In this document: positions 26,461-64,000 of the stretch, in pieces
How positions within the stretch are numbered: position 1 is the first letter of the stretch
Layout of the letters: each line of letters opens with the position of its first letter
DNA from: Bacillota bacterium
GTDB taxonomy: Bacteria; Bacillota; Negativicutes; Sporomusales; CTSoil-080
Length of the DNA: 64,000 bases
Direction: 5' to 3'
NCBI GenBank assembly: GCA_017889625.1
Contig: JAGGAD010000023.1
Span: 238-64,237 of the forward strand
Position numbers and translations under genes: made by a program
The notes under the pieces: model-generated
Seen by the model: the letters and a program-made list of their open reading frames with translations, nothing else
Database searches by the model: none
What the model was told of the DNA's origin: nothing

Positions 26461-26504
26461 GGTCAATGAAGACCTTCTGAGCTTTCTGGCGGGAGGTCTC
26501 TTTT
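26461..26504 (+). promoter_or_regulatory. ANTAR-type hairpin overlapping a leader terminator
   Basis: GGTC-AATGAA-GACC (loop A1,G4); its 3' strand starts stem agaccttctg / cgggaggtct + TTTT. Confidence 0.55.
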
Positions 26505-49773: not shown

Positions 49774-50274
49774 ATGGACTCAATATTTATCAGGCGCAGT
49801 GTAAGAAAATATCTAAACCAGCCAGTTGAAAGCGAAAAAGTGGAGCAACTGCTGAAAGCGGCCATGCAGGCACCTTCAGCAGGTAATCAGCAGCCTTGGG
49901 AATTTATCGTTGTTCAGGATAAGAAATTGTTGTCTAAGCTGTCCCTATTGAGTCCGTATGCAGGACCGATTAATGAAGCCGCGGTTGCGATAGTTATGCT
50001 GGGGAATAAGGAAAACGTGAAGTTTCCCGAATATTTGCAGCAGGATCTTTCGGCGGCAACTCAAAATTTGCTATTACAAGCAGTTGAATTAGATTTAGGT
50101 GCGGTTTGGCTTGGTGTTGCACCAATAGAAGAACGAATGAAATATATTATGGAGTTGTTTGATTTGCCGGAGTCTATTATGCCATTTGCGGTAATACCAA
50201 TAGGATATCCTGAGACAGAAAATAAATATATTGATCGATACGAAAAAGTAAAAGTTCATTATGGTAGATATTAA
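49774..50274 (+). CDS. Nitroreductase family protein
   Basis: RRSVRKY, APSAGNQQPW, NLLL.A..L.LGAVWLG, IPIGYP. Confidence 0.93.
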   Translation: MDSIFIRRSVRKYLNQPVESEKVEQLLKAAMQAPSAGNQQPWEFIVVQDKKLLSKLSLLSPYAGPINEAAVAIVMLGNKENVKFPEYLQQDLSAATQNLLLQAVELDLGAVWLGVAPIEERMKYIMELFDLPESIMPFAVIPIGYPETENKYIDRYEKVKVHYGRY

Positions 50275-50440
50275 AATGAAATCAATTTTCTGATCAGGTA
50301 GAACTAGCAGCGAAATTACATACATTGGTTAGCGTTATTTGATTTTTTAAAAATGTTTTGAGGTATATACAATTTGGAATTAAATCATTTTTTGAGGATC
50401 AAGTCAATTGTCATATTTCAAAAGTGAAGGGGAAATGGCT

Positions 50441-51304
50441 GTGAAAAAGATCATTATTTTGTTGGTCGTGTTTATGTTTGCGATTCCAGTTATGAGTGTG
50501 CAGGCAGTAGCAAGCAAAGGAAAAATATTATTAGTTGCATCTAGTACAAGCACTCTAGAACTTAAAGACCATCGAAGTATGGCAACGGGTTTCTATCTTA
50601 ACGAACTTGCAGTTCCAGCCCTACGACTAATTGAAGAAGGCTATGAGGTTGTTGTAGCAACTCCAAACGGCAATAAGCCGGTTATGGATGCGCATTCTAG
50701 CAATGCTAAACTTTTCGGCAATGATCAGGCTGCTCTGCAACGGGCGCTTCACTTTGTCGATACATACCCAAGCATTCAGCACCCGATTACATTGAAGGAG
50801 GCCGTTGACAGTGGCTTGGATCAATATTCTGGCATTTATGTTCCAGGCGGTCATGCGCCAATGAACGATTTGATACAGGATGCTAGTTTAGGCGAGGTGC
50901 TACGTTATTTTCATCAACAAGCGAAACCTACAGCTTTTTTATGTCATGGACCAATTGCGGCATTGGCGGCGCTGACCGATGCATCAGCCTATCGGAAAGC
51001 GCTTGTAAACGGAGACTTTGATGCGCAGAAGTCAACTAGTGTAAACTGGCAGTATGCTGGCTATCATATGACGGTTTTCTCCAATGTGGAAGAGTATCCG
51101 GGTGAGAAGAAACTTCAGGGGCAAGTGCCGTTTTATGTCGCTGACGCTTTACAGATCGCGGGTGGCATAGTTGAACATGGGCCAATTATGAAGAGTTATG
51201 TTGTGCGAGATAGAGAACTGATTACTGGTCAAAACCCGGCTTCGGATCATGCGCTTGCTGAGGAACTTATTAAAGCATTAAACGAAAAACAAGCAGGTAA
51301 ATAA
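50441..51304 (+). CDS. DJ-1/PfpI (Hsp31-like) protein with N-terminal signal peptide
   Basis: GFYLNEL, PGGHAPM.DL, LCHGP, LITGQNPAS. Confidence 0.88.
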   Translation: MKKIIILLVVFMFAIPVMSVQAVASKGKILLVASSTSTLELKDHRSMATGFYLNELAVPALRLIEEGYEVVVATPNGNKPVMDAHSSNAKLFGNDQAALQRALHFVDTYPSIQHPITLKEAVDSGLDQYSGIYVPGGHAPMNDLIQDASLGEVLRYFHQQAKPTAFLCHGPIAALAALTDASAYRKALVNGDFDAQKSTSVNWQYAGYHMTVFSNVEEYPGEKKLQGQVPFYVADALQIAGGIVEHGPIMKSYVVRDRELITGQNPASDHALAEELIKALNEKQAGK

Positions 51305-51476
51305 TCGTTTGAATAGGTAGGAGATTATATGGCTTAATGCACAAGAATACGGGAAATTGATCGAAAGAGGAACTAAAACTTCCTCTTTCTCTTTTAGCGT
51401 TAGCATGAGGCAATCAAACAGTGAAATTGAGTGATGGGAAGAATGCTTTCATTATATTTAGGGAGTTATTAATTAA

Positions 51477-52637
51477 ATGGAAAGTAATTCAATATTAAAC
51501 AACAAACAGTTTATTTCAATCTTTCTTATAGCGTTTTTAGTGTATTTTTCAAATGGTATGCTTGCACAAACCTTGCCTAAATATGCATTTGATTTAGGTG
51601 CTACGTCGCAAATCATTGGAGTACTGTCAGGCACTTTTGCGATGTGTGCCCTGCTGCTTCGTCCTGTTTCGGGGCTGATGGTGGATAATGAGGATAGAAG
51701 GCTGTTGCTTCGCATCACCATCGGGGTTATTTTAGTGTCAGTTACCGGATTAACATTTTCTAAACAAGTATGGCTGCTAATCGTATTTCGCGGTATCAAT
51801 GGACTGGGCTGGGGCATTGGCTCAACCTTGTGTATGACAATAGCCTCCAGTTGTTTTAGCAAGGAAAAATTGGGTTCGGGAATTGGCATTTACGGATTAG
51901 GCCAAACCATTGCCCAGGCAATTGCGCCGGTGATTGGGTTAAATGTGGCACAAGCTTATAGTTATAATTTCCTATATCAGTTCAATGTCATTATTTGTGC
52001 GGCAGCGTTCGTACTTACATATTTTATTAAGCTTGATACGTCGTCAAAAAAAGAGCGAAAATATTCGGTAAGCCTGAAGGAAATGGTATGCTTGTCGGCT
52101 ATCCCGCCTAGCGTAGTGACTTTATGTAATAGCATCGCACAAGCTTCTGTAACCGCATTTCTGGTCATCTTTGCCAATAGCATTTCGGTGACTCAAATTG
52201 GCGTGTTTTTTACCGTCCAGGCGGCTATTGTACTCGTTGCCAGACCACTTTGGGGAAAGTTGACAGACAAATATGGTTGTTTAAAGGTTATCATACCCTG
52301 TGAGTTTCTCATTGCGTCTGGCTTGTTGACTATTTTCTTTTCCCAGGCCCTGTGGCAGTTTCTTCTTGCCGCCGTGCTTGTTGGCGCGGGAACGGCAGGC
52401 AATCAGCCAGTACTTATGGCGGAATGTATTAGACGAGCGCCTCCCGAGCAACGGGGAAGAGCCAGTAATACCAGTTATATGGGAACTGATATCGGGGGAG
52501 TTGTTGGCAGTAATCTAGCCGGCCTGCTGGTTACTTTGATTGGGTATCGAAATTTATATTTAATTTTTATATTGCCAATTTTAATGGCTACTTTTATGTA
52601 CACTGTTTTTGAAAAAAGAAGGGTTGGCAATTTGTAA
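51477..52637 (+). CDS. MFS transporter
   Basis: About 12 hydrophobic segments; RP.SG..VD...RR and GKLTDKYG motif A. Confidence 0.9.
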   Translation: MESNSILNNKQFISIFLIAFLVYFSNGMLAQTLPKYAFDLGATSQIIGVLSGTFAMCALLLRPVSGLMVDNEDRRLLLRITIGVILVSVTGLTFSKQVWLLIVFRGINGLGWGIGSTLCMTIASSCFSKEKLGSGIGIYGLGQTIAQAIAPVIGLNVAQAYSYNFLYQFNVIICAAAFVLTYFIKLDTSSKKERKYSVSLKEMVCLSAIPPSVVTLCNSIAQASVTAFLVIFANSISVTQIGVFFTVQAAIVLVARPLWGKLTDKYGCLKVIIPCEFLIASGLLTIFFSQALWQFLLAAVLVGAGTAGNQPVLMAECIRRAPPEQRGRASNTSYMGTDIGGVVGSNLAGLLVTLIGYRNLYLIFILPILMATFMYTVFEKRRVGNL

Positions 52638-52746
52638 AGTGTCAAAATTTGATTTTTTTCCTGCCGAGGAAGCGCGGAACAACCGTTAAAGTTAATATGA
52701 GTATATTTCGGGCGCGAAATAATCTCGATGAGAGTTTAAAGACAAT

Positions 52747-52822
52747 ATAGGCAGTACAAGGCTTCGCTGGCTTTGCACTGCCTTGTTTTTGTGTTCGGAA
52801 AGAGTGCACTGTCCCCGTGAGA
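52747..52822. repeat. Second copy of the palindromic repeat at 16411
   Basis: ATAGGCAGTACAAGGCTTCGCTGGCTTTGCACTGCCT hairpin followed by ACTGTCCCC. Confidence 0.45.
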
Positions 52823-53005
52823 AAGAAGTGTTTATATAGTTAGTTGGGTACTGGTATGAGATTAGGGGAAATAATATACGTGGTATTTGGCTGGAAGACG
52901 GGAACTATATACGTGAAACCGGCGGTGGGGTTTAATTTGGAGATATACCATGGGCTGGATAATTTGATATAATAAATAGTTGGTTGAATTTTTATTTGAT
53001 TTATT

Positions 53006-54631
53006 ATGCCAATTTTTACCGTTAACGGAAAGGGCGTGCTCTATACGACAAGCAAAAATTACGCAGTAAAAATTTCGTTAGTATATCTTTTGTTTGGGAT
53101 ATTGTGGATTTTATTATCCGATAGTTTAATCGGATTTTTATCTTTAAATAGAGAGATTGTAATTTGGTTTTCTGTTATTAAGGGCTGGATTTTTGTTGGC
53201 TTATCCGCTTTGCTTATTTACATTGTCGGTAAGCGGTATATGCAAAAATTAGCTAATGCTAACCAGTTGCAACAAGAAATTTTGCAGGCTATGCCTGATT
53301 TAATTCTACGGATAGATAGCCAGGGGATATTTATCGACTATAATAAACCGCCCGATTTTGATTTATATGTTTCGCCGAAACAATTTTTAGGGAAAAGCGT
53401 TTTTGATGTTTTTCCCCAAAAAATTGCCGAAAGAGCGATTGAGCATATTAAAAATACCATCATTAGTGGGAAGATACAATTAATTGAGTATCAGCTACCA
53501 CAAAATAGCAAAGTGCATTACTTTGAAGCTCGCTTTGTCAAAAGTGGCGAGGCCGAGGTAATGGCTATAGTCAGAGAAATTACTTATAAAAAGCAAATTG
53601 AGCAAAGGTTGGAATTCCTTAGCTTAAATGATTCACTTACTGAAGTACACAACCGGGCCTATTTTGAGGAGCAAATCCGTAAGATTCGCAGTAATGATGG
53701 TGAAAATCCGGGCATTATTGTCTGTGATGTTGATGGTCTTAAATTAATTAATGATGCACTAGGTCACTTCGCAGGCGATCAATTACTCAAGGCCGCAGCC
53801 CAAATACTGAGTTCTTGCACATTTTTCCCCGATGTTATCGCCAGAATTGGCGGTGACGAATTTGCAATAATTGTGTCAAATCCTAAGAAACAAAAAATGA
53901 ATGAGCTAGCTAGGACAATTAAAATAGCTGTAGAGAAATATAACCAAAGTAACCCCAAGCTTCCGTTAAGCCTTTCCTGCGGTTGGGCAATTGGTTCTGA
54001 GGACATCAGTGTGCTGTTTAAGGAAGCGGATAACAACATGTATCGCGAAAAAATGCGTAAGGGGATCGGTACACATAGTGCAGTGGTACAAGCAATGATA
54101 CGGGCTTTAGAAACCAGGGATTATATTACGGAAGGGCATGCTGAGCGTGTTGAAATACTAATCGAAGAATTTGCGCAGAAAATGCAACTGGCTGACTCAA
54201 TGATTGCCGATTTGAAGCTGCTGGCAAAATTTCATGATATCGGGAAAGTGGGAATTCCGGATGACATTTTATTTAATCCGGGAAAACTAACGGCTGATGA
54301 AAGTACGGTTTTGCGCCGTCACTGTGATATTGGGTTCCGGATAGCGAAATCAGTGCCGGACTTAGCGCCTATTGCCGATTGGATTTTAAAGCATCATGAA
54401 TGGTGGAATGGCAAAGGATATCCCCTTAACCTTGTTGGTGAAGAAATTCCCTTGGCTTGTCGGATGTTGGCGATAGCCGATGCTTTTGATGCCATGACGA
54501 ATGACCGCCCATACCGCAAAGCCATGAATTATCAAGAAGCTATCAATGAACTACAGCGCTGTGCTGGAACACAATTTGATCCGGTTCTTACTGAAAGTTT
54601 CATTGAAATAATAACTAACTTACCTACATGA
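53006..54631 (+). CDS. Membrane PAS-GGDEF-HD-GYP c-di-GMP turnover protein
   Basis: Two TMs, PAS, RIGGDEF, HDIGK, HHEWWNGKGYP, ADAFDAM. Confidence 0.93.
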   Translation: MPIFTVNGKGVLYTTSKNYAVKISLVYLLFGILWILLSDSLIGFLSLNREIVIWFSVIKGWIFVGLSALLIYIVGKRYMQKLANANQLQQEILQAMPDLILRIDSQGIFIDYNKPPDFDLYVSPKQFLGKSVFDVFPQKIAERAIEHIKNTIISGKIQLIEYQLPQNSKVHYFEARFVKSGEAEVMAIVREITYKKQIEQRLEFLSLNDSLTEVHNRAYFEEQIRKIRSNDGENPGIIVCDVDGLKLINDALGHFAGDQLLKAAAQILSSCTFFPDVIARIGGDEFAIIVSNPKKQKMNELARTIKIAVEKYNQSNPKLPLSLSCGWAIGSEDISVLFKEADNNMYREKMRKGIGTHSAVVQAMIRALETRDYITEGHAERVEILIEEFAQKMQLADSMIADLKLLAKFHDIGKVGIPDDILFNPGKLTADESTVLRRHCDIGFRIAKSVPDLAPIADWILKHHEWWNGKGYPLNLVGEEIPLACRMLAIADAFDAMTNDRPYRKAMNYQEAINELQRCAGTQFDPVLTESFIEIITNLPT

Positions 54632-54690
54632 TTGACATTTTTCTTATAAAGGGGTATAGTTACCTTTGTTAATTATTAACCATGGTAACT
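54632..54690 (+). promoter_or_regulatory. SigA promoter with MarR-type inverted operator
   Basis: TTGACA(54632)-17-TATAGT(54655); AGTTACC...GGTAACT palindrome 54658-54690. Confidence 0.7.
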
Positions 54691-54711
54691 GTTTTTGGAA
54701 AGGAGACTATT

Positions 54712-55143
54712 TTGCAGGGCTTTTTTCGTCGTTGTTTATTACTAAATAGAGCATTTATCAGTAAAATGAATGAAGTTCTCGGAGTATATGGCCTTTCTTA
54801 CTCCAAATGGACGGTTGTTTGTTATGTGAAAGATCATGGATCTTCTATGTTGGTGGATATTGCAAACCATGCTAATGTAAGAAATCCGGTAATTACTAGG
54901 ATTGTGCAGAGGTTAGAAGAGAATGGTGTAGTACAGCAAATACCTGGTCTGGATAAACGGGAAAAAATAATTGAGTTAACGGAAAAAGGCGAGCGGATTT
55001 ATCAAGAATGCCGCAAAGTTATTGATAACCTGGAACGGAAGGTATTGGCAGGTATTTCCGAAGAAGAGATAAAAGCAGCGTTTGAAGTTTTTCCTAAAGT
55101 ACGAGATAATCTAATGGATATAGGTGATAATAAGAATGAATAA
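54712..55143 (+). CDS. MarR-family regulator
   Basis: ITRIVQRLEENG.V....DKREK...LTEKG; TTG start after AAGGAG. Confidence 0.9.
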   Translation: MQGFFRRCLLLNRAFISKMNEVLGVYGLSYSKWTVVCYVKDHGSSMLVDIANHANVRNPVITRIVQRLEENGVVQQIPGLDKREKIIELTEKGERIYQECRKVIDNLERKVLAGISEEEIKAAFEVFPKVRDNLMDIGDNKNE

Positions 55144-56335
55144 CGTCAAATTATGGACTAGAGATTTTTTGATTGATTCAATAACAAATTTGTTTATTTA
55201 TTTAGCGTTTTATTTGTTGATGGTGACGATAACAACTTATGCAATGGATAATTTACAGGCTTCGCCAAGTGAGGCTGGACTTGCGTCCGGCATTTTTATT
55301 GTCGGGACACTTATTGCTCGGGTTTTTGTGGGAAAAGCGATCGACCGGGTTGGCAGGAAAAAGACCCTTTATGTTGGCTTGGTTTTATTTTTAGGGATGA
55401 CTTTGTTGCATTTTGGCGTAAACAACCTGGTGTTTCTGGTAGTTATTCGTTTTTTGCATGGGGCAGCATTTGGGATTGCGGCAACAGCGACGGGAACGAT
55501 TGCCGCGAGTGTCATTCCGCATGAACGGCGGGGTGAAGGGATCAGTTATTATGCAATGAGCCTTGCGCTGGCTTCAGCAATCGGACCTTTTTTAGGGATG
55601 TTTATTAATCAACAGGGCAGCTTTAATATGGTGTTGTTGTTAGCGGCAATTCTAGTGTTAGCAAGTTTAATTGCAGTGCTATTTTTAAGGGTACCTGAAG
55701 CCGAGCTGACGGAAGAGCAATTGGTTAAGATGAAAGGGGTTGCGTTGAGTAATTTCTTCGAAGCTCAGGCAATTCCGATTTCGCTTGTCAGTATATTTAT
55801 CGGCTTGGGCTATTCAAGTATTTTGAGTTTCATGGCGGTTTATGCCAGGGAAATAAATTTAGCTGATGCGGGCAGTTTTTTCTTTATTGTTTATGCGATA
55901 GCCACGTTAATTTCCCGACCATTAACTGGTCGCTGGTTTGATCAAAAAGGGGAAAATTTTGTTATGTATCCCGCATTCCTGGTCTTTGCACTTAGCTTGG
56001 TTATTCTTAGCCAAGCTTATCAGGGCAGCATTCTCTTGTTGGCGGGAATATTTGTGGGCTTTGGTTATGGGACATTATTGTCGAGTTCTCAAGCGATAGC
56101 GGTTAAGGTATCACCGCGCCATCGCTTAGGGTTAGCGACGTCTACTTTTTATATTTTCCTTGATGGCGGGGTAGGAATTGGACCATTTTTATTAGGCTTT
56201 TTGATTCCAATAACCGGATTCCGCGGATTGTATATGAGTATGGCGATTGTTCTTTTGTGCTGCACTTTTTTATATTATTTTTTGCATGGGAGAAAACCGG
56301 CAGAGTATGGTGAGGAGCTTGTTACCGAGGGTTAG
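55136..56335 (+). CDS. MFS transporter
   Basis: KLWT.DF, G..IDRVGRK, RFLHG, RRGEGI.YY. Confidence 0.92.
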   Translation: MNNVKLWTRDFLIDSITNLFIYLAFYLLMVTITTYAMDNLQASPSEAGLASGIFIVGTLIARVFVGKAIDRVGRKKTLYVGLVLFLGMTLLHFGVNNLVFLVVIRFLHGAAFGIAATATGTIAASVIPHERRGEGISYYAMSLALASAIGPFLGMFINQQGSFNMVLLLAAILVLASLIAVLFLRVPEAELTEEQLVKMKGVALSNFFEAQAIPISLVSIFIGLGYSSILSFMAVYAREINLADAGSFFFIVYAIATLISRPLTGRWFDQKGENFVMYPAFLVFALSLVILSQAYQGSILLLAGIFVGFGYGTLLSSSQAIAVKVSPRHRLGLATSTFYIFLDGGVGIGPFLLGFLIPITGFRGLYMSMAIVLLCCTFLYYFLHGRKPAEYGEELVTEG

Positions 56336-56468
56336 TCGGTAGGAGGCAAAAACAGAAAGCAGCAGTTTTTCTTAGTTGTTCCGGTTTTGACAATACGGCT
56401 TAAGCAAAACGGAGTAAGATAGGATTAAAATTATATACTGGACAGCAAACATTTGAGGATTGTTGGCT

Positions 56469-56533
56469 TGGCAATGTGGCCAGGGAAATGTGATCACAAC
56501 ATGGTGATAGTATTTCCCTGGCTAATTTTTTTG
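56469..56533 (+). promoter_or_regulatory. ANTAR-type hairpin overlapping a leader terminator
   Basis: TGGC-AATGTG-GCCA; its 3' strand begins stem gccagggaaat / atttccctggc + T tract. Confidence 0.6.
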
Positions 56534-56622
56534 TTCGGTACTGTGAGGAGGAGTTACATCACAAGTTTATTTTATAAAAGGTAAATGGCTATTTTTATTG
56601 TTTAGAGAGGAAGGGATAGATT

Positions 56623-57846
56623 ATGGCTAATACAGTAGTAAAAATTAATTTAGAAAAATACGATCTTGATGGTGAAGCGATATTGGTCGTAGATACTGTT
56701 GAACGAAGTGTTCCGGCCAAAGGCGGAATCAGGGTACGGGAAAATTTAGCGGAAGAAGAGGTGGCCGCTTTATCGGCAGAAATGACAAGAAAGTGCATTT
56801 TGGCTGATATTCCGTTTGGTGGGGCTAAAGGCGGGATTCGGTTAGCTGACTTGAAACAGGTGGATAAGGCCATGTACGCGTTTGGCAGAGAGCTTGCTAA
56901 AATTGATTTTATCCCTTATCGCTGGTGTGCCGCACCGGATGTAAATACGGATAGCAAGGCGGTAGATTCTTTTATTGCCGGGTGTGCTTCGGTTATCGGC
57001 TGGCGAAAAGCCCGGTTGGCGGCAACCGGAAAAAGTACGGGGATTCCTCACGAACTTGGCAGTACCGCTTATGGGGTTGTCTTGAGCATTGAAGAGACGC
57101 TTAAGCAAATGTCGCTTAAGTTTAAACTGCAAGGCGCGACGGCAATTGTTGAAGGTACCGGTGAGGTTGGTGGTAACGCAATTCCACTGTTAATAGAAAA
57201 AGGTGTAACTATCCTTGGCATAAGTGATATTAGTGGTGCGTTATATTGTGCTGCAGGTCTTGAAGGAACTGCTTTGCGCCAGTTGATTGAGGAGAAGCGG
57301 CTGATAAAAGATGCCGTGGCAAGTTTTAACGGAGCGATATATGAGGCTAATCCTGGTTCTTTGTTAACGAAACCGGCGGATATTCTTTTGTTAGCGGGCC
57401 CAGGCCGCAGTATTAATGAGGATAACTGCCGGGAAGTAAAAGTAAAGCTGATTGCCGAAGGCGCTAATATTGCGTATGTCAATAATGAATTGAGAAATGT
57501 GGTTCATGGCAGAGGAATTTACTCAATCCCCGGAATTATAGCTAATTCTGGCGGCGTAATATCAAGCTATGAGGAATGGATCATGGAAACGGAAAATCTG
57601 ATGCATTTATCTATCGAAGCGAAGTGGCTTCGAGTAAAGCAGTCGATAGCGAAAAGAGTTAGCCGTAATATTCAAGAGTTATGTGCCAAGTCGGTTCAGC
57701 AGCCAGGGGTTAATCTGTATGAGTGTGCATTAGCGATGGTAGAGGAAAGAATGGCGGATGCTCGGCAGGAAAACAAAAAACTGCGGGTTTTAACGAAAAA
57801 CATTAATAAAGAGTTGGAAGAAAAATTTGCAGTTTTTACTTGTTAG
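56623..57846 (+). CDS. Glu/Leu/Phe/Val dehydrogenase, glutamate-type signature
   Basis: PAKGGIR, MTRK, GGAKGG, APDVNT, TGK, EGAN, NSGGVISS. Confidence 0.85.
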   Translation: MANTVVKINLEKYDLDGEAILVVDTVERSVPAKGGIRVRENLAEEEVAALSAEMTRKCILADIPFGGAKGGIRLADLKQVDKAMYAFGRELAKIDFIPYRWCAAPDVNTDSKAVDSFIAGCASVIGWRKARLAATGKSTGIPHELGSTAYGVVLSIEETLKQMSLKFKLQGATAIVEGTGEVGGNAIPLLIEKGVTILGISDISGALYCAAGLEGTALRQLIEEKRLIKDAVASFNGAIYEANPGSLLTKPADILLLAGPGRSINEDNCREVKVKLIAEGANIAYVNNELRNVVHGRGIYSIPGIIANSGGVISSYEEWIMETENLMHLSIEAKWLRVKQSIAKRVSRNIQELCAKSVQQPGVNLYECALAMVEERMADARQENKKLRVLTKNINKELEEKFAVFTC

Positions 57847-57907
57847 TTAGTACCGATTTTACCAATACAGATGCTGCGAAAAATAGTATTATAATAAATA
57901 AGAGAAA

Positions 57908-57999
57908 GATGTAGTGATGTACATCGCTCAAATAATAATCGGCAGAGTCGCCTCAATAGTACTACTTAGGTAGTGGTGCTATTGAGGCGCTTATTTTTT
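57908..57999 (+). promoter_or_regulatory. Dual-hairpin ANTAR-type leader with overlapping terminator
   Basis: Hairpin 57908-57925 (contains AGTGAT); GGC-AGAGTC-GCC 57941-57952; terminator cgcctcaatag / ctattgaggcg + T tract. Confidence 0.65.
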
Positions 58000-58035
58000 A
58001 ATCGCCGATGCAGAAATAAAACAAGAGGTGGAAAG

Positions 58036-58443
58036 ATGAATTTAGAACGTACCAATTATTCTTCAGGGGCTCCGTTAGAAGCCAAATCCGGCTACAGCCG
58101 AGTAGTAAAAGTAGGACCATTTGTTTATGTTGGCGGTACCACCGCGGTACAGCCGGATGGCACTGTGTATGGGGAAAATGACGGTTATGGTCAAGCTAAA
58201 TTTGTTTTTGAAAAAATGTTAAAATGTATGGCGGAAGCTGGGGGCGCGGCTAGTGAGGTTGTCAAAGTAAAGTTGTATACGACCGACATGAGCCGGGCCG
58301 GGGAATATGCTAAAGCGTATTCGGAAATATTCAAAGAGATTAAACCTTTGTTTACGATGGTAGGAATTGCTGCTCTAAATCGTCCCAGTCAACTGGTAGA
58401 AATTGAAATAGATGCTATTATTGGTTCTGCTCAGAAATTATAA
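58036..58443 (+). CDS. RidA/YjgF (Rid) family protein
   Basis: SSG.P.E...GYSR.V, V.GTTA, LVEIE; SD GAGGTG. Confidence 0.88.
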   Translation: MNLERTNYSSGAPLEAKSGYSRVVKVGPFVYVGGTTAVQPDGTVYGENDGYGQAKFVFEKMLKCMAEAGGAASEVVKVKLYTTDMSRAGEYAKAYSEIFKEIKPLFTMVGIAALNRPSQLVEIEIDAIIGSAQKL

Positions 58444-58521
58444 TAAATAGCTAGGGATTATAATGGTGTAAGGGTTATTGGTTTTATCGAAATAAGTATA
58501 GCGATGATTTGTTAGTGGATT

Positions 58522-58577
58522 AACCACAAAGCTTTTGGTTGCACAATGACGTGTACTCCAAGGGGTTGTGGTTTTTT
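58522..58577 (+). promoter_or_regulatory. Leader terminator capped by an ANTAR-type hairpin
   Basis: aaccacaa...ttgtggtt + T tract with apical GCAC-AATGAC-GTGT. Confidence 0.5.
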
Positions 58578-58663
58578 GTTTTTATGAAACCAGGCAGTGG
58601 ACAATTAATCACAGGAAAAACAAAGGAGCTGTTAATTTCCGCAAAGTAAAAGGAGGAGTTATT

Positions 58664-60037
58664 ATGATTGAACAGTTTGGGTATAAGCAAGAATTTAAAC
58701 GAGCATTATCTTTACGGGATTTGGTTTTATTTGGAATGACTTTTATGTCGCCGACAGCAACGATGACGTTGTTTGGGATTATGTCGACAAATTCGCAAAA
58801 CCATGCGGTATTATCTTATGTATTTGGTTTTATCGCCATGATGTTTACTGCGATGAGTTACGGAAAAATGGTAGAAGAGTTTCCTGTTGCCGGCTCTACT
58901 TATAGCTATACGCAACGGGCAATTGATTCAAAATTAGGGTTTGTAGCCGGTTGGGTAATGTTGCTGGATTATATGTTAATTCCTCTGCTGTTATATATTG
59001 TAAGTGCAAATTATGCGCATGCGCTAATGCCGATGATTCCCTATTGGGCCTGGATTTTAATATTTGTAATTCCGGTTACAATTGTTAATTACCGGGGGGT
59101 GGAAGTGGCGGCAAAGGTGAACTTGGTGATCACGGTGATATTGTTTGCTTCGGTTCTGGCTTTTGTTATTGCCGCCGTTGGCTATGCGGCTGGAAATTCT
59201 ATGCCGGTATTTGAATTAAAGGCTATATATAACAGTGAGACATTTTCGGTAACTGGGGTAGTGGCGGGGGCCGCTATGGCAGTGCTTTCTTACCTAGGGT
59301 TTGATGGTATAACGACATTATCGGAAGAAGCTAATGTCAGCAGTGATAAAATCAAGAAGGCCATTATTTGCGCGTGCGTTTTTCAAACCATTATCTTTGT
59401 AGCGGTTGCTTATTTTGCAACAATGTACGCTCCGGATTACACGGCCTTTGCTGATTTAGACACGATTTTTTACGATATAACTTATAAAGTAGGCGGAGCG
59501 GCATTACAGCTTTTTGTTACTCTGGTGATTATTATTTCCGGTCCCGCTACCGCGTTAGCCGGACAGTCTTCCGCCAGCCGGCTGTTGTTTGGGATGGGAC
59601 GGGATAACTTAATTTCCAAGAAGATATTTGCGCATATTCACCCTAAATATAAAACGCCCTCGTACAGCATAATTATTATGGGCATTCTTGGCGCAATCGG
59701 CGGCTTGACTGTTAGTATGGAAATCGTAACGGATATTGTAACTTTTGGTGGCTTGATTGGCTTTATTTGCGTGAATTTTGCGGTGTTCTATTATTTCGCG
59801 CTAAAAAAAGGAAAATATAACTTATTTAGTAACATTATCTTCCCTTTTCTTGGCGTTCTAAGTTGTGGCTATATATTGTGTAATTTGTCGGATATCGGAA
59901 AAATTGTTGGTTTCAGCTGGATGGGCTTAGGAATCGTTTATTTAGTAATGCGTTCGGCCGGTTCTAGTAAATTTAGACAGTTACTTAGCAATAAGCATGA
60001 CCTGGTTCAGGCAGAAGCGGCTTTTGAAAAGACGTGA
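58664..60037 (+). CDS. APC-family amine/amino acid permease (PuuP/PlaP-like)
   Basis: GYKQE.KR.L, P.AGS.YSY, LDY, SYLGFDGITTLSEE, SRLLFGMGRD. Confidence 0.9.
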   Translation: MIEQFGYKQEFKRALSLRDLVLFGMTFMSPTATMTLFGIMSTNSQNHAVLSYVFGFIAMMFTAMSYGKMVEEFPVAGSTYSYTQRAIDSKLGFVAGWVMLLDYMLIPLLLYIVSANYAHALMPMIPYWAWILIFVIPVTIVNYRGVEVAAKVNLVITVILFASVLAFVIAAVGYAAGNSMPVFELKAIYNSETFSVTGVVAGAAMAVLSYLGFDGITTLSEEANVSSDKIKKAIICACVFQTIIFVAVAYFATMYAPDYTAFADLDTIFYDITYKVGGAALQLFVTLVIIISGPATALAGQSSASRLLFGMGRDNLISKKIFAHIHPKYKTPSYSIIIMGILGAIGGLTVSMEIVTDIVTFGGLIGFICVNFAVFYYFALKKGKYNLFSNIIFPFLGVLSCGYILCNLSDIGKIVGFSWMGLGIVYLVMRSAGSSKFRQLLSNKHDLVQAEAAFEKT

Positions 60038-60211
60038 ATTTAAATCGGTTATCAGTTAGAGGACAAAAAGGTAGACTATATGTCGCGTAGTATTGATGCT
60101 ACAACGGCGTTTCATCAATATTACGCGGTAAGTATTCCGTTTTTAACAATACAAGCTGCCGTAATAATATTAAAATTAGAGTTGTGGTTGTAATATGAGA
60201 GAGGTGTTAGT

Positions 60212-60397
60212 ATGGTTGAACGCTTAAATCCATTTTCAGTATGTCCGGCCTGTGGCAGTGTTGCAACATGGGACAGCTATAAACAGAAAAATATTTGTAG
60301 AGAATGCGAGCAGATACGGAAAATTTTTAAAGGACCGATTGAAATTAACCCGGCTGTAAGTAGGCAGGATGTACTCGAAAAAAATGCCAGCGATTAA
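60212..60397 (+). CDS. Small zinc-ribbon protein
   Basis: CPAC...CREC; SD GAGGTG. Confidence 0.6.
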   Translation: MVERLNPFSVCPACGSVATWDSYKQKNICRECEQIRKIFKGPIEINPAVSRQDVLEKNASD

Positions 60398-60513
60398 AGT
60401 GGATGTCAGTTTTTATTTGGGAGAGAAATAGTTTATTGGCTGCGAAACCGTTTTAGTTCTGATTTTTACTATAATTTCGTGGCCGTATATTTTAAAATAA
60501 AGATAAGTTAATG

Positions 60514-60559
60514 AGACAAAGGCGTCTGATTCCTGCGGGAGTTAGACGCCTAAATTTTT
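60514..60559 (+). promoter_or_regulatory. ANTAR-type hairpin overlapping a leader terminator-like stem
   Basis: AGAC-AAAGGC-GTCT; competing stem aggcgtctgattcc / ggagttagacgcct + aaatttt. Confidence 0.65.
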
Positions 60560-60573
60560 AGGGGGTAATAATT

Positions 60574-61704
60574 ATGCTACCAGCAATTGATTTTTTGTAT
60601 TTGAATGAGGAAGATATGATAAAAGCAGGCGTTATGGATATGAAGGGCTGTATCGAAGCGATGGAGGATATGTTAAAGGCGATGAACGTCGGTGACTATG
60701 TGATGGGGGGAGCTAACCACAACTCGCATGGGGTTATGGTTACGTTTCCCGAAAAATCGCCATTTCCGAATATGCCGGTCGACGGACCTGACAGAAGATT
60801 TATGGCGATGCCGGCATATTTGGGGGGCAAATTTGATATGGCGGGGATGAAATGGTACGGGTCCAATGTAGCCAACCGGGGAAAAGGGCTGCCTCGTTCG
60901 ATCCTGATGTTAATGCTCAATGATAAAGATACGGGAGCGCCAAAGGCATTAATGTCAGCCAATATATTAAGTGCTTACCGCACCGGAGCCATACCGGGCG
61001 TAGGGGTCAAGCATCTGGCGATAAAGGATGCTAAGGTTGTCGCAATTGATGGACCGGGGATTATGAATCGAACCGCGTTAAAAGCCTGTCTCTGTGCTCG
61101 TCCAAAGATTGATACGGTTAAAATTCATGGACGGGGGAAGGCATCAATAGATAAATTTATCACTCATGTAAAAGAAAACTATCCGCAGATAAAAACAATA
61201 GAAGTTGCCGATAGCCTTCAAGAAGCAATTAAGGATGCGGATATTATTAGTTCTGCGACATCAGGCACCGTGGGGTCAGCTACTCATCCTTATATAAAAG
61301 AAGAATGGATAAAACCAGGGGCGTTACTTTGTTTGCCGGCTAATATCCGCTTCGATGATGACTTTATTCTTAACCGGGCGAAGAACGTTGTCGATAATAT
61401 AAAACTTTATGAAGCTTGGGCGGAAGAACTGCCGTATCCAGGGTTTGAAATAGTCGGGTTGATCGGGGTGCATTTTATGGATCTAGTCCATGATGGTAAG
61501 ATGGCACCATCGCAAATTGATGATTTAGGCGATATTTTGCTGGGCAAGAAACCTGGTCGTAAGGATGATGAGGAAATAATCATTTATTCTGTTGGCGGAA
61601 TGCCGGTTGAGGATGTTGCTTGGGGGACAATGATTTACCGTAATGCGCTAAAAATGGGTATCGGTCAAAAGTTAAATCTTTGGGATAAACCAGCAATGGC
61701 TTGA
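60574..61704 (+). CDS. Ornithine cyclodeaminase/mu-crystallin family protein (TynB tyramine oxidase subunit B-like)
   Basis: DRRFMAMPAYLGG, KWYGSN, LND..TG.P, LSAYRTGA, G..PGR, GGMPVEDVAWG. Confidence 0.85.
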   Translation: MLPAIDFLYLNEEDMIKAGVMDMKGCIEAMEDMLKAMNVGDYVMGGANHNSHGVMVTFPEKSPFPNMPVDGPDRRFMAMPAYLGGKFDMAGMKWYGSNVANRGKGLPRSILMLMLNDKDTGAPKALMSANILSAYRTGAIPGVGVKHLAIKDAKVVAIDGPGIMNRTALKACLCARPKIDTVKIHGRGKASIDKFITHVKENYPQIKTIEVADSLQEAIKDADIISSATSGTVGSATHPYIKEEWIKPGALLCLPANIRFDDDFILNRAKNVVDNIKLYEAWAEELPYPGFEIVGLIGVHFMDLVHDGKMAPSQIDDLGDILLGKKPGRKDDEEIIIYSVGGMPVEDVAWGTMIYRNALKMGIGQKLNLWDKPAMA

Positions 61705-61726
61705 GTATACGATAGGGAGCGAGCAT

Positions 61727-62065
61727 ATGAACAGCAGAATAAAAGAGCATCCGATCTTAGGTAAAATAGAAAAGGGACGGCGCGTAACGTTTTCGCATGA
61801 TGGTAATATTATTGAAGGTTTTGAGGGTGAGCCGATTTCGGCCGCTCTTAAGGCGGCAGGAGTTATGGTTCACCGCCATACGCAGAAATATGGCGCTCCG
61901 CGCGGCATATTCTGTGCAATTGGCCGTTGTACTGATTGTGTCATGGTTGTTGATGGTAAACCGAATATCCGAACATGCATAACGCCTCTGGCGGAAGGCA
62001 TGATTGTAGAAACCCAGTATGGTGTTTCCGCTAAGAGTACGAACAAAGCGGAGGGAATGGCATGA
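61727..62065 (+). CDS. 2Fe-2S subunit (HcnA/opine or proline dehydrogenase small-subunit-like)
   Basis: GEPI.AAL, RGIFCAIGRCTDC...PNIRTC. Confidence 0.88.
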   Translation: MNSRIKEHPILGKIEKGRRVTFSHDGNIIEGFEGEPISAALKAAGVMVHRHTQKYGAPRGIFCAIGRCTDCVMVVDGKPNIRTCITPLAEGMIVETQYGVSAKSTNKAEGMA

Positions 62066-63651
62066 AAAGATATGATTTGATTGTAGTTGGCGCAGGTCCT
62101 GCCGGCCTTTCCGCAGCGGTTGAAGCCGCAAAATACGGATTAAAAGTGGTTGTTTTTGATGAAAATGCCAATCCAGGCGGACAGCTTTTTAAGCAAGTTC
62201 ATAAGTTCTTTGGTTCTAAAGAGCATAAGGCAAAAATTCGCGGGTTTCGAATTGGCAGTCAATTGCTGGAAGAAGCCAATAATCTTGGGGTTGAGGTCGT
62301 TTTAAATGCTACGGTAGCGGGGCTGTTTCAGGATAAGGAAATAACGGTTCGGATCAAGGATTCGATTCAGCATTATAAAGGTGATGCGATTCTTGTTGCT
62401 ACTGGTGCGGCAGAGAATATGGTTCCGTTTAAGGGTTGGACGCTTCCCGGTGTAATTGGGGCTGGAGCAGCTCAGACGATGATGAATTTACATGGTGTTG
62501 TACCGGGACAAAAGATATTGATGCTCGGGTCGGGAAATGTCGGGCTGGTGGTTAGTTATCAGCTATTGCAAGCTGGCTGTGAAGTAGTAGCGCTGGTTGA
62601 TGCCGCACCAAAAATCGGCGGCTATGGTGTACATGCCGCAAAGCTTGCGCGAACCGGGGTACCGTTCTATTTATCCCATACTATTATTAAGGCTGAGGGT
62701 ACTGATTGTGTGACTGGCGTTACTATTGCTGAAGTAGATAAGACATGGAAAACTATCCCTGGAACAGCGAAGAGCTTAGCAGTAGATACGATTTGCCTGG
62801 CGGTTGGACTTTCGCCGATGGCTCAACTTCTTAAAATGGCGGGTTGTATAATGGAGGATAATCCGAAAAAAGGCGGTCAGGTTCCGGTGTGTAATGCTTA
62901 TGGCGAAACATCGCTGCGGGGAGTTTTTGTGGCAGGCGATGTTTCGGGGGTTGAGGAAGCAAGTTCGGCGATGATTGAGGGGCGTATTGCCGGTATTGCC
63001 GCTGCTGAATATTTGGGATATATCGATAAAGCTGTATTGACCGAAGTGGCTGAGGCTCTTGAAAGTGCCTTGAGCAGTCTGCGGCAAGGCATGTTTGCTG
63101 TGGAAAACAGGGGTAAAAATATTGAGAAGACGGATGAGGGGTATGTGGTTTCCCAGCATCTTTTGAAAAAAGGATATTTTCAAGATGCTGAAGTCGAGAA
63201 ATATCCAGGAGTCACGCGGCAGCCTGGGGTTCATGCTGTGATCGAGTGTTCGCAGAATATACCGTGTAATCCTTGCCAGGATGCGTGTCCAAGGCATTGT
63301 ATTAAGATTGGCGACAAGATTACCTCTTTGCCGGTTGTCGATGAGACGGCAAATTGCAGTGGCTGTGGTATGTGTGTGGCGGCTTGTTCTGGGCAGGCGA
63401 TATTCTTGGTGAATGAAGGCTATGAGGCTGGGTACGCAAGTATAACAATTCCTTATGAATTTTTGCCGCTGCCAGGAGAAGGTGATCGTGGTTGGGCCTT
63501 GGATCGCGGGGGTTCAAAAGTTTGTGCGGCTGAGGTTGTGAAGGTGCAGACTGCACCAGTTTTTGATCATACCAGTTTGTTGACAATAAAAGTACCTGTT
63601 GCGATGGCAATGAAGGCACGATTCTTCAAGGAGGACAATTGTCATGCATAA
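62062..63651 (+). CDS. FAD-dependent oxidoreductase subunit (HcnB/OoxA-like) fused to a 2x[4Fe-4S] ferredoxin domain
   Basis: GAGPAG, ATGA.E, GWTLPGV, GSGNVG, AGD; C..IPCNPC..ACP and CSGCGMCVAAC. Confidence 0.88.
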   Translation: MKRYDLIVVGAGPAGLSAAVEAAKYGLKVVVFDENANPGGQLFKQVHKFFGSKEHKAKIRGFRIGSQLLEEANNLGVEVVLNATVAGLFQDKEITVRIKDSIQHYKGDAILVATGAAENMVPFKGWTLPGVIGAGAAQTMMNLHGVVPGQKILMLGSGNVGLVVSYQLLQAGCEVVALVDAAPKIGGYGVHAAKLARTGVPFYLSHTIIKAEGTDCVTGVTIAEVDKTWKTIPGTAKSLAVDTICLAVGLSPMAQLLKMAGCIMEDNPKKGGQVPVCNAYGETSLRGVFVAGDVSGVEEASSAMIEGRIAGIAAAEYLGYIDKAVLTEVAEALESALSSLRQGMFAVENRGKNIEKTDEGYVVSQHLLKKGYFQDAEVEKYPGVTRQPGVHAVIECSQNIPCNPCQDACPRHCIKIGDKITSLPVVDETANCSGCGMCVAACSGQAIFLVNEGYEAGYASITIPYEFLPLPGEGDRGWALDRGGSKVCAAEVVKVQTAPVFDHTSLLTIKVPVAMAMKARFFKEDNCHA

Positions 63652-63979
63652 TGTTAATAATCGATCACGCGATATTGGTGAATTTGTTCCGGCTGAGGAT
63701 GATGAGTTGTTAATCTGCCGTTGCGAGGAGATTACTAAGGGTGAGATCCGGCGGGCTATTCATGACGGAATGTTTACTCTGACGGAAATAAGACGGTATC
63801 TGCGTACTGGTATGGGACTTTGCCAAGGCCAGACCTGCGGCAAGTTGGTAAAGGAAATCGCGGCAAGAGAGCTGGGGTTAGTTTTAAGTGAGTTGGGAAA
63901 TGCATCTTCTCGGGTGCCGATGCGTCCGATCGAAATGAAGGTATTTGGCAATGAAAAGGAGCCGGGAGAAAATGCATAA
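63644..63979 (+). CDS. BFD-like [2Fe-2S] subunit
   Basis: ICRCEEIT, R.GMGLCQGQTC, R.P.RP. Confidence 0.88.
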   Translation: MHNVNNRSRDIGEFVPAEDDELLICRCEEITKGEIRRAIHDGMFTLTEIRRYLRTGMGLCQGQTCGKLVKEIAARELGLVLSELGNASSRVPMRPIEMKVFGNEKEPGENA

Positions 63980-64000
63980 ATGTACAGAGGTTATAATTAT
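63972..64000 (+). CDS. Start of a probable FAD-dependent (DAO/HcnC-like) subunit, truncated by the window edge
   Basis: SD AAGGAG, ATG overlapping the previous stop; MHKCTEVII resembles the beta strand before GxGxxG; only 9 codons visible. Confidence 0.45.

Follow-up and report, generated by a model that had tools for sequence, protein, structure and literature searches.

Targets of the ANTAR antiterminator EutV are pairs of RNA hairpins whose six-nucleotide loops (hexaloops) carry A at position 1 and G at position 4 (A1/G4) above conserved closing pairs, and in the eut leaders of Enterococcus faecalis both hairpins, P1 and P2, and a 5–12 nt linker were needed in vivo, and induction was lost when the linker was made shorter or longer (PMC3369931). 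The minimal ANTAR target has been redefined as a single hexaloop from a EutV–RNA structure, with a call for bioinformatic surveys (PMC8934654). GnfR of Geobacter sulfurreducens, a REC-ANTAR protein activated by phosphorylation, is reported to bind RNA with one CAGGCAANGGCGCC site overlapping nif-leader terminators (PMC2995071), and predictions exist of ANTAR nitrogen regulons in which one locus has several attenuators, including 13 matches in six units in Desulfotomaculum acetoxidans (PMC3369931). We analysed a 64,000-nt stretch from a Bacillota bacterium of the class Negativicutes (assembly GCA_017889625.1, contig JAGGAD010000023.1, positions 238 to 64,237 of the forward strand), called the window throughout and numbered from its first letter, in which short hairpins fused to intrinsic terminators precede genes for an amino-acid dehydrogenase (gdh), a RidA-family protein (rid) and an OCD-like protein. 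These leaders are probably protein-dependent attenuators of the ANTAR type that belong to a genome-wide nitrogen regulon with a PdtaR-like reader.

The mechanism class and the RNA motif are already known, and the mechanism is not new. The original prediction, made from the sequence of the window, had presented the regulon as one its author did not know to be described; such regulons are already in print (PMC3369931, PMC2995071). The nif-leader site CAGGCAANGGCGCC of GnfK/GnfR equals GGC[AANGGC]GCC (loops are bracketed throughout), a core that recurs here before glutamine synthetase and the OCD-like operon, and in the part of PMC2995071 drawn on here the site is single and a second hairpin is not invoked. 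Single-hexaloop, GnfR-type switches can be defined by a C-G-closed AANGNN loop on the leader terminator of a nitrogen gene, and both the site consensus and the regulon found here have that form. The two systems belong to different phyla, and the Geobacter leaders stand behind RpoN promoters under GnfL/GnfM (PMC2995071), whereas the leaders here follow sigma-70-like −10 boxes (by eye) and the kinase, of the PdtaS type, is encoded next to the regulator. The regulon predicted here also reaches amino-acid/amine catabolism. Regulons predicted in Clostridia/Peptococcaceae share much of the content (amt–PII, homocitrate synthase/nitrogenase, glutamine synthetase, chemoreceptors (MCPs) and ligand-binding receptors) and the overlap of an A1/G4 hexaloop hairpin with a terminator, but they were defined by a dual-hairpin model, often with the ANTAR gene beside glnA (PMC3369931), whereas the sites here lack P1. 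The supplements of PMC3369931 name none of Selenomonas, Veillonella, Thermosinus, Acidaminococcus and Pelosinus, and literature searches returned no paper on ANTAR in Negativicutes and nothing relevant on single hexaloops or NitR. The apparent departures from described systems are the lone hairpin, a PdtaS/PdtaR-type regulator and a regulon extending into an amino-acid/amine cluster with three to five serial switches.

The switches lie in a co-directional row of genes at 56336–60573, whose five intergenic leaders total 1,046 nt. Their parts are as follows.

56469..56482, + strand: gdh-leader hairpin TGGC[AATGTG]GCCA, loop 56473–56478 (from sequence, fold and covariance model)
56479..56532, + strand: gdh-leader intrinsic terminator, stem 56479–56522, T7 at 56526–56532
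57908..57925, + strand: rid-leader upstream hairpin GATGTA[GTGATG]TACATC, 6-bp stem, 15–18 nt before the rid hairpin
57941..57952, + strand: rid-leader hairpin GGC[AGAGTC]GCC, loop 57944–57949, the weakest of the three
57949..57999, + strand: rid-leader intrinsic terminator, 18-pair stem 57949–57989, then CTTATTTTTT
60514..60527, + strand: OCD-leader hairpin AGAC[AAAGGC]GTCT, loop 60518–60523 (from sequence and covariance model)
60520..60561, + strand: OCD-leader intrinsic terminator, 14-pair stem 60520–60551, then AAATTTTTAG

All three hairpins of the original prediction are where it had placed them. Their loops (AATGTG, AGAGTC and AAAGGC) have A1 and G4 in every case, the stems are 4, 3 and 4 bp long (gdh, rid, OCD), the closing pair is C-G in all three, and each has a 3′ arm with which a strong intrinsic terminator begins. 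The bases shared by hairpin and terminator are 56479–56482 (gdh, the whole 3′ arm of the hairpin and the first four bases of the terminator), 57949–57952 (rid) and 60520–60527 (OCD), and the two structures are mutually exclusive. Alone, the small hairpins fold at −2.3 to −2.8 kcal/mol (gdh −2.7, rid −2.8), compared with −25 to −33 kcal/mol for the terminator-containing segments (gdh with flanks, 56462–56535, −30.3; rid −32.9; OCD −25.6). Being far weaker than the terminators, the small hairpins would therefore be unable to compete unaided and the unassisted RNA would terminate, so read-through needs some factor that holds the small hairpin. The rid and OCD terminators are the first and second matches of a terminator scan, the best two of 19 terminator-like sites in 50000–64000 (shuffled sequences gave 12.3); the loop of the gdh terminator is too large for the scan used, and its support is the fold. 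The tip of the gdh terminator is itself a second hexaloop hairpin, TCAC[AACATG]GTGA (56494–56507), C-G closed and 11 nt past the first, with A at position 4. The second hairpin that had been predicted upstream of rid is present at 57908–57925, with a G1/A4 loop and not an A1/G4 one. An Rfam covariance search of the window gave zero matches at gathering scores, and a search of 56300–60600 with E up to 10 gave two chance-level matches only; a known Rfam RNA (riboswitch, T-box, RAT and so on) was dropped as the identity of these leaders for want of a covariance-model match.

Loop statistics were taken from a scan of the whole 3.30-Mb assembly for hexaloop hairpins with a 3′ arm that runs into a terminator (n = 419). 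A1/G4 loops occurred in 40 of the 419, against about 25 expected from base composition, and AATG was the commonest loop prefix (14 versus 2.3 expected, binomial P = 1.3e-7), with all 14 hairpins of this kind closed by C-G. Without the terminator filter, the genome has 116,461 hexaloop hairpins with a 3-bp stem, and no loop is enriched among them, so the enrichment is a property of hairpins joined to terminators. Hairpins of the form C[AANGNN]G number 638 on both strands of the 3.30 Mb, and three of them (gdh, the tip of the permease-leader terminator, and OCD) fall in the five leaders, where about 0.10 would be expected (Poisson P about 1.6e-4).

These counts bear on one alternative, that the elements are ordinary, unregulated terminators of the preceding genes carrying fortuitous short stems. 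The abundance of 3-bp hexaloop stems speaks for it, as does the fact that every one of the terminators also follows a gene end. It applies mainly to the rid site, which fits the family model poorly. Covariance model R1 was built from 63 hairpins, none from the three leaders studied, and run unfiltered against both strands of the window; it gave the OCD hairpin 17.5 bits (rank 2) and the gdh hairpin 16.5 bits (rank 4). The rid hairpin was outside the 18 R1 matches listed in the window, which places it below 9.6 bits. Two further window matches, 21068(−) and 41852(−), were set aside as having no terminator, the former lying antisense inside a 1057-aa open reading frame (ORF). Support for the rid hairpin, the weakest of the three, comes from its architecture and from two look-alikes that have terminators elsewhere, GGC[AGAGCC]GCC ahead of an amino-acid ABC transporter in the same genome and GGC[AGCGTA]GCC in the amtB leader of a relative (G002). 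Against ordinary terminators stand the restriction of the loop enrichment to terminator-overlapping hairpins, the three motif hairpins in 1,046 nt, the conservation of the OCD leader and of the permease-leader element in the relative G072, and the functional coherence of the downstream genes. We regard this explanation as highly improbable.

Beyond the window, 21 sites of the same class were curated by eye from genome scans, with non-coding context and a clean terminator as criteria; a looser terminator filter, which gave 107 mostly coding sites, served only as a pool for this curation. The curated sites precede nifH (with two PII genes and nifD), homocitrate synthase (nifV), two ammonium transporters (amtB), three oligopeptide-type and three other ABC uptake systems, amino-acid ABC included, two MFS transporters, two chemoreceptors and one small ORF without a Pfam family, as well as gdh, rid and the OCD-like gene. 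The glutamine synthetase gene has two switches in series, and the core GGC[AAAGGC]GCC occurs ahead of it. The original prediction of an amine/peptide nitrogen-scavenging regulon thus holds for nitrogen and fails for specificity, since nifH, nifV, amtB and glutamine synthetase are included; the amine/peptide arm would be the catabolic and uptake part of a general nitrogen-limitation response. From this content we infer the nitrogen signal and the direction of regulation. The consensus of the 63 curated sites behind the model is GGC[AATGAA]GCC. Among 60 distinct curated sites the closing pair is C-G in all 60, as the search pattern demanded, and the fourth stem pair, which the pattern did not demand, is paired in 42. 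Covariance scoring across the genome, applied to 150 of the 616 first-look candidates, placed coding matches without terminators among the top scores, and the model alone was rejected as a definition of the regulon.

A single ANTAR domain is encoded in the assembly (98% complete), and none in the window, as the original prediction had noted: the sole PF03861 match lies on another contig (C97), at 79.1 bits versus a cut-off of 27.3. A genome without ANTAR proteins, which would have refuted that prediction, is thus not what was found. The gene encodes a 193-aa REC-ANTAR protein (PF00072, PF03861) with the acceptor Asp present. It directly follows the gene of a 480-aa kinase (GAF_PdtaS PF12282, PAS PF08448, HisKA_2 PF07568, HATPase PF02518) and precedes groES/groEL, with tsaEBD and a rimI-like gene as neighbours. 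The best solved relative of the regulator is Rv1626/PdtaR of Mycobacterium tuberculosis (1s8n; 191.7 bits over 182 residues), with EutV next (152.5 bits). By domain make-up and adjacency, kinase and regulator qualify as a putative two-component system of the PdtaS/PdtaR (Rv3220c/Rv1626) type, the kinase sharing its GAF_PdtaS, PAS and HisKA_2 domains. Aligned with EutV, the regulator keeps the Tyr that there stacks on G4; of the two loop-gripping lysines, one is Lys here too and the other is Arg. Residue roles follow PMC8934654, with an inferred two-residue offset between the chain index and the published numbering. Inspection by eye gave no sign of autoregulation, as no motif was seen in the intergenic stretches ahead of the kinase gene and between the regulator and groES genes. 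The latter interval holds an inverted repeat, TTAGCACTC-N9-GAGTGCTAA, before groES (L163, 5340–5375), which we take to resemble a CIRCE/HrcA operator.

In a sample of the class, 56 of 61 genomes have an orthologue of the regulator gene, and the amtB leader carries the hairpin and terminator module in all 26 single-ANTAR genomes whose amtB leader was examined. Three examined genomes have no ANTAR match (G043, G058 and G008). G043 (97% complete) has no ANTAR gene, has genes other than pdtaSR before groES, and lacks the amtB motif; the region upstream of its amtB gene (L160) holds a differently structured leader with no hexaloop module. G058 (87% complete) lacks groES too, so its ANTAR region is probably unassembled.

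The modules could be real nitrogen attenuators read by another RNA-binding factor or by a small RNA, leaving the PdtaR-like protein with another regulon. The genes of the ANTAR two-component system have housekeeping neighbours and no tie to nitrogen genes, whereas Table S2 of PMC3369931 lists an ANTAR gene beside glnA in many Clostridia, and G008 has the leaders and no detectable ANTAR gene. G008 is, however, just 88% complete, the G4-stacking Tyr is conserved, and the leaders accompany the gene in 26 of 26 single-ANTAR genomes while the near-complete, ANTAR-less G043 is without the motif. The consensus of loop and closing pair also equals that of sites bound experimentally by ANTAR proteins (PMC3369931, PMC2995071). 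We consider a different reader unlikely, and the ANTAR protein remains our preferred reader, with read-through as the probable effect.

If so, one hairpin appears to suffice in this lineage. An A1/G4 hexaloop hairpin 3–25 nt upstream, in the position of P1, was found at one of the 21 sites (shuffles gave 1.9), where it coincides with a TATAAT −10 box, and at none of the gdh, rid and OCD sites. In several leaders (amtB of G053 and G059, and nifV and opp of the genome studied here) the hairpin begins about 12–25 nt past the −10 box, judged by eye, and there is therefore no room for P1. EutV/EutW resembles the present system in placing several ANTAR switches in one catabolic locus and in its REC-ANTAR regulator with a G4-reading Tyr (PMC3369931, PMC8934654), and differs in needing P1 and P2 and in its signal, ethanolamine and AdoCbl, as against one hairpin and presumably nitrogen status here. 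The leaders might still be canonical dual-hairpin targets whose P1 was missed as degenerate, distant or lying downstream, in tandem modules or in hairpins at the terminator tip. Tandem modules 50–130 nt apart in the leaders of an amtB paralogue would fit this, as would the tip hairpin of the gdh terminator and the 6-bp hexaloop hairpin upstream of rid; yet both of the latter loops are without G4, and the P1 count and the promoter distances above also speak against it, making a missed partner decidedly unlikely. Switching by single or distant hairpins had been suggested from the window; the switch type is well supported by comparative evidence, and the switches seem to work with no partner hairpin close by.

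Conservation is broadest at amtB, where the module was found upstream in 37 of 39 Negativicutes genomes examined; the two misses are G035 (58% complete) and G043. The leaders of one amtB paralogue have, across the class, the two tandem modules mentioned above, GGC[AATGAA]GCC with a terminator and then GAC[AATGRC]GTC with a terminator (L071, L073–L079, L161, L162, L164–L169). The tandem-type copy of the genome studied here (contig C83, near 61809) has the first module only, with the loop GATGAA, and position 1 may be G in the loops of relatives too (GAAGAA, GATGAA). In five genomes of different families (L164–L168), a CATCAACAAGATAG-like string occurs in the 5′ leader just past the −10 box and before the first amtB hairpin, with no conserved pairing seen in it. 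G059 and G038 share the GAC[AAAGGC]GTC core of the OCD leader, there ahead of amtB. For the OCD operon itself, a search of 200 genomes of the class gave a single close orthologue (G072, 79% identity, same gene order), whose leader AGAC[AGCGGC]GTCT keeps A1/G4, changes positions 2–3 and has a covarying terminator. For gdh, the single close orthologue among 60 relatives (G002, 74%) is in another operon context, with a 454-aa ORF downstream, and gdh control seems to differ between sister genera. The expectation that loops are conserved in orthologous leaders is thus borne out for OCD and not for gdh. Distant OCD-family homologues in G022 and G023 (L178, L179) have TGGCAC-N5-TTGC-like strings upstream, which suggests sigma-54 promoters instead of attenuators.

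A hairpin of the same family in the permease leader is laid out differently. Its position among the genes of the row, and the remaining elements of the window, are as follows.

26461..26499, + strand: another switch of this class, GGTC[AATGAA]GACC with terminator, before an oligopeptide ABC operon
56623..57846, + strand: gene 1, amino-acid dehydrogenase of the Glu/Leu/Phe/Val type, gdh (PF00208, PF02812)
58036..58443, + strand: gene 2, RidA/L-PSP family protein, rid (PF01042)
58522..58584, + strand: 'apex-type' permease-leader terminator AACCACAA...TTGTGGTT with T-run (from fold)
58664..60037, + strand: APC-family amino-acid permease (PF00324, PF13520)
60084..60127, + strand: long 15-pair hairpin before the 61-aa CxxC ORF (folds; status uncertain)
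60212..60397, + strand: 61-aa ORF with two CxxC pairs, no Pfam family
60574..61704, + strand: OCD/mu-crystallin-family gene opening the operon (Pfam)
60574..63979, + strand: OCD-like operon of OCD, 2Fe-2S protein, FAD/NAD oxidoreductase and BFD-like protein (Pfam)

The permease-leader hexaloop, TGCAC[AATGAC]GTGTA (58540–58555, loop 58545–58550), caps the tip of its terminator (58522–58573) and, unlike the gdh, rid and OCD hairpins, does not overlap the 5′ arm. It scored 13.3 bits with model R1, rank 6 in the window. In G072 the same layout stands ahead of a permease next to the OCD operon; the permeases are 35% identical, and the tip is nearly unchanged, GCAC[AATGAT]GTGC (reverse complement of locus L180, near 12747), while the outer helices show changes that keep pairing (ACCACAA/TTGTGGT versus ACCTCAA/TTGAGGT, aligned by eye). 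No true orthologue of the permease was found in 200 genomes of the class, the best match having 43% identity. A genome-wide scan for the terminator-tip layout gave 11 matches, of which the permease leader is the only non-coding case. A pentaloop hairpin upstream in this leader, GTGG[ATTAA]CCAC, was considered as P1 and dropped, as the G072 leader has no equivalent by eye. The apex element may serve an opposite-sense response, a decoy or another mode.

Of the other elements, the 26461–26499 switch lies shortly after a TATAAT-like box and ahead of genes for SBP_bac_5, two Opp permeases and an ATPase; it scored 18.4 bits, but is itself a training sequence of the model. The 60084–60127 hairpin, a weaker relation of the apex element, has the tip AC[AACGGC]GT (60101–60110), with only two closing pairs, which puts it outside the scan criteria, and no U-tract directly follows it. 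The gdh product falls far under every cut-off of the NCBIfam equivalogs, and the OCD-like protein belongs to the NF004848 'tyramine oxidase subunit B' subfamily (604.8 bits versus a cut-off of 362); its operon continues beyond the window end. Further upstream, a PAS-GGDEF-HD(HD_5) gene (53006–54631) precedes a MarR-family regulator and MFS transporter pair, with no visible tie to the switches.

Several points weigh against ANTAR-dependent attenuation as the explanation. The G008 leaders, in a genome that has another gene upstream of groES, count mildly against assigning them to the ANTAR protein, and the EutV rule of two hairpins and a linker does not hold here. Clamping the permease tip hexaloop would not obviously block termination. 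At rid, an ordinary terminator may simply carry a short stem by chance. The spacer before the G002 gdh orthologue, 73 nt long and following an amino-acid permease (L018), has neither hairpin nor terminator. The motif alone is unspecific, 11 of the 19 best genome model matches listed being coding and without a terminator; the sites were selected by eye, and because the search patterns demanded C...G closure and G4, the invariance of these features is partly circular.

On balance we propose the following mechanism. By default, RNA polymerase would halt at the intrinsic terminator before gdh, rid and the OCD-like operon. Under nitrogen scarcity, an activated ANTAR antiterminator, most likely a phosphorylated dimer of the sole, PdtaR-like ANTAR protein partnered with the PdtaS-like kinase, would clamp the weak 3–4 bp hairpin with its C[A..G..]G hexaloop. 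Since the terminator stem starts with the 3′ arm of the clamped hairpin, the terminator would not form and transcription would read through. The three switches would be members of a nitrogen regulon conserved in Negativicutes that operates with no upstream recruitment hairpin.

Topics of the PdtaS/PdtaR literature include nutrient deprivation, c-di-GMP binding, host stresses and antibiotic resistance; at the level of titles and abstracts, no nitrogen attenuator regulon was found in it, and actinobacterial ANTAR RNAs are reported to act by translational repression (10.1101/660928). A wider reading, which we advance tentatively and rate a little below an even call, is that the PdtaS/PdtaR-type system, widely conserved yet obscure in function, is the master nitrogen-status antiterminator of Negativicutes. 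One-hairpin attenuators would bring nif, amtB, glutamine synthetase, peptide uptake and amino-acid/amine catabolism under its control, together with the terminator-cap layout of the permease leaders (of this genome, G000, and of G072). If true, single hairpins would suffice despite the time limit set by the transcribing polymerase, and the terminator-cap layout might mark an inverted or decoy-type response.

The value of the finding lies in annotation, in a search rule (a GC-closed AANGNN hexaloop fused to a terminator) and in the odd terminator-tip layout. The 37 of 39 genomes with the module offer a clade-wide data set for the question raised by PMC8934654, whether single hexaloops drive ANTAR antitermination. 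The PdtaS/PdtaR family would gain a candidate regulon together with its RNA site, in a lineage of which Sporomusa and Pelosinus are in culture, and an amino-acid/amine catabolic cluster would be placed in the nitrogen-starvation response, giving the dehydrogenase, RidA and 'tyramine oxidase subunit B'-like genes a testable role.

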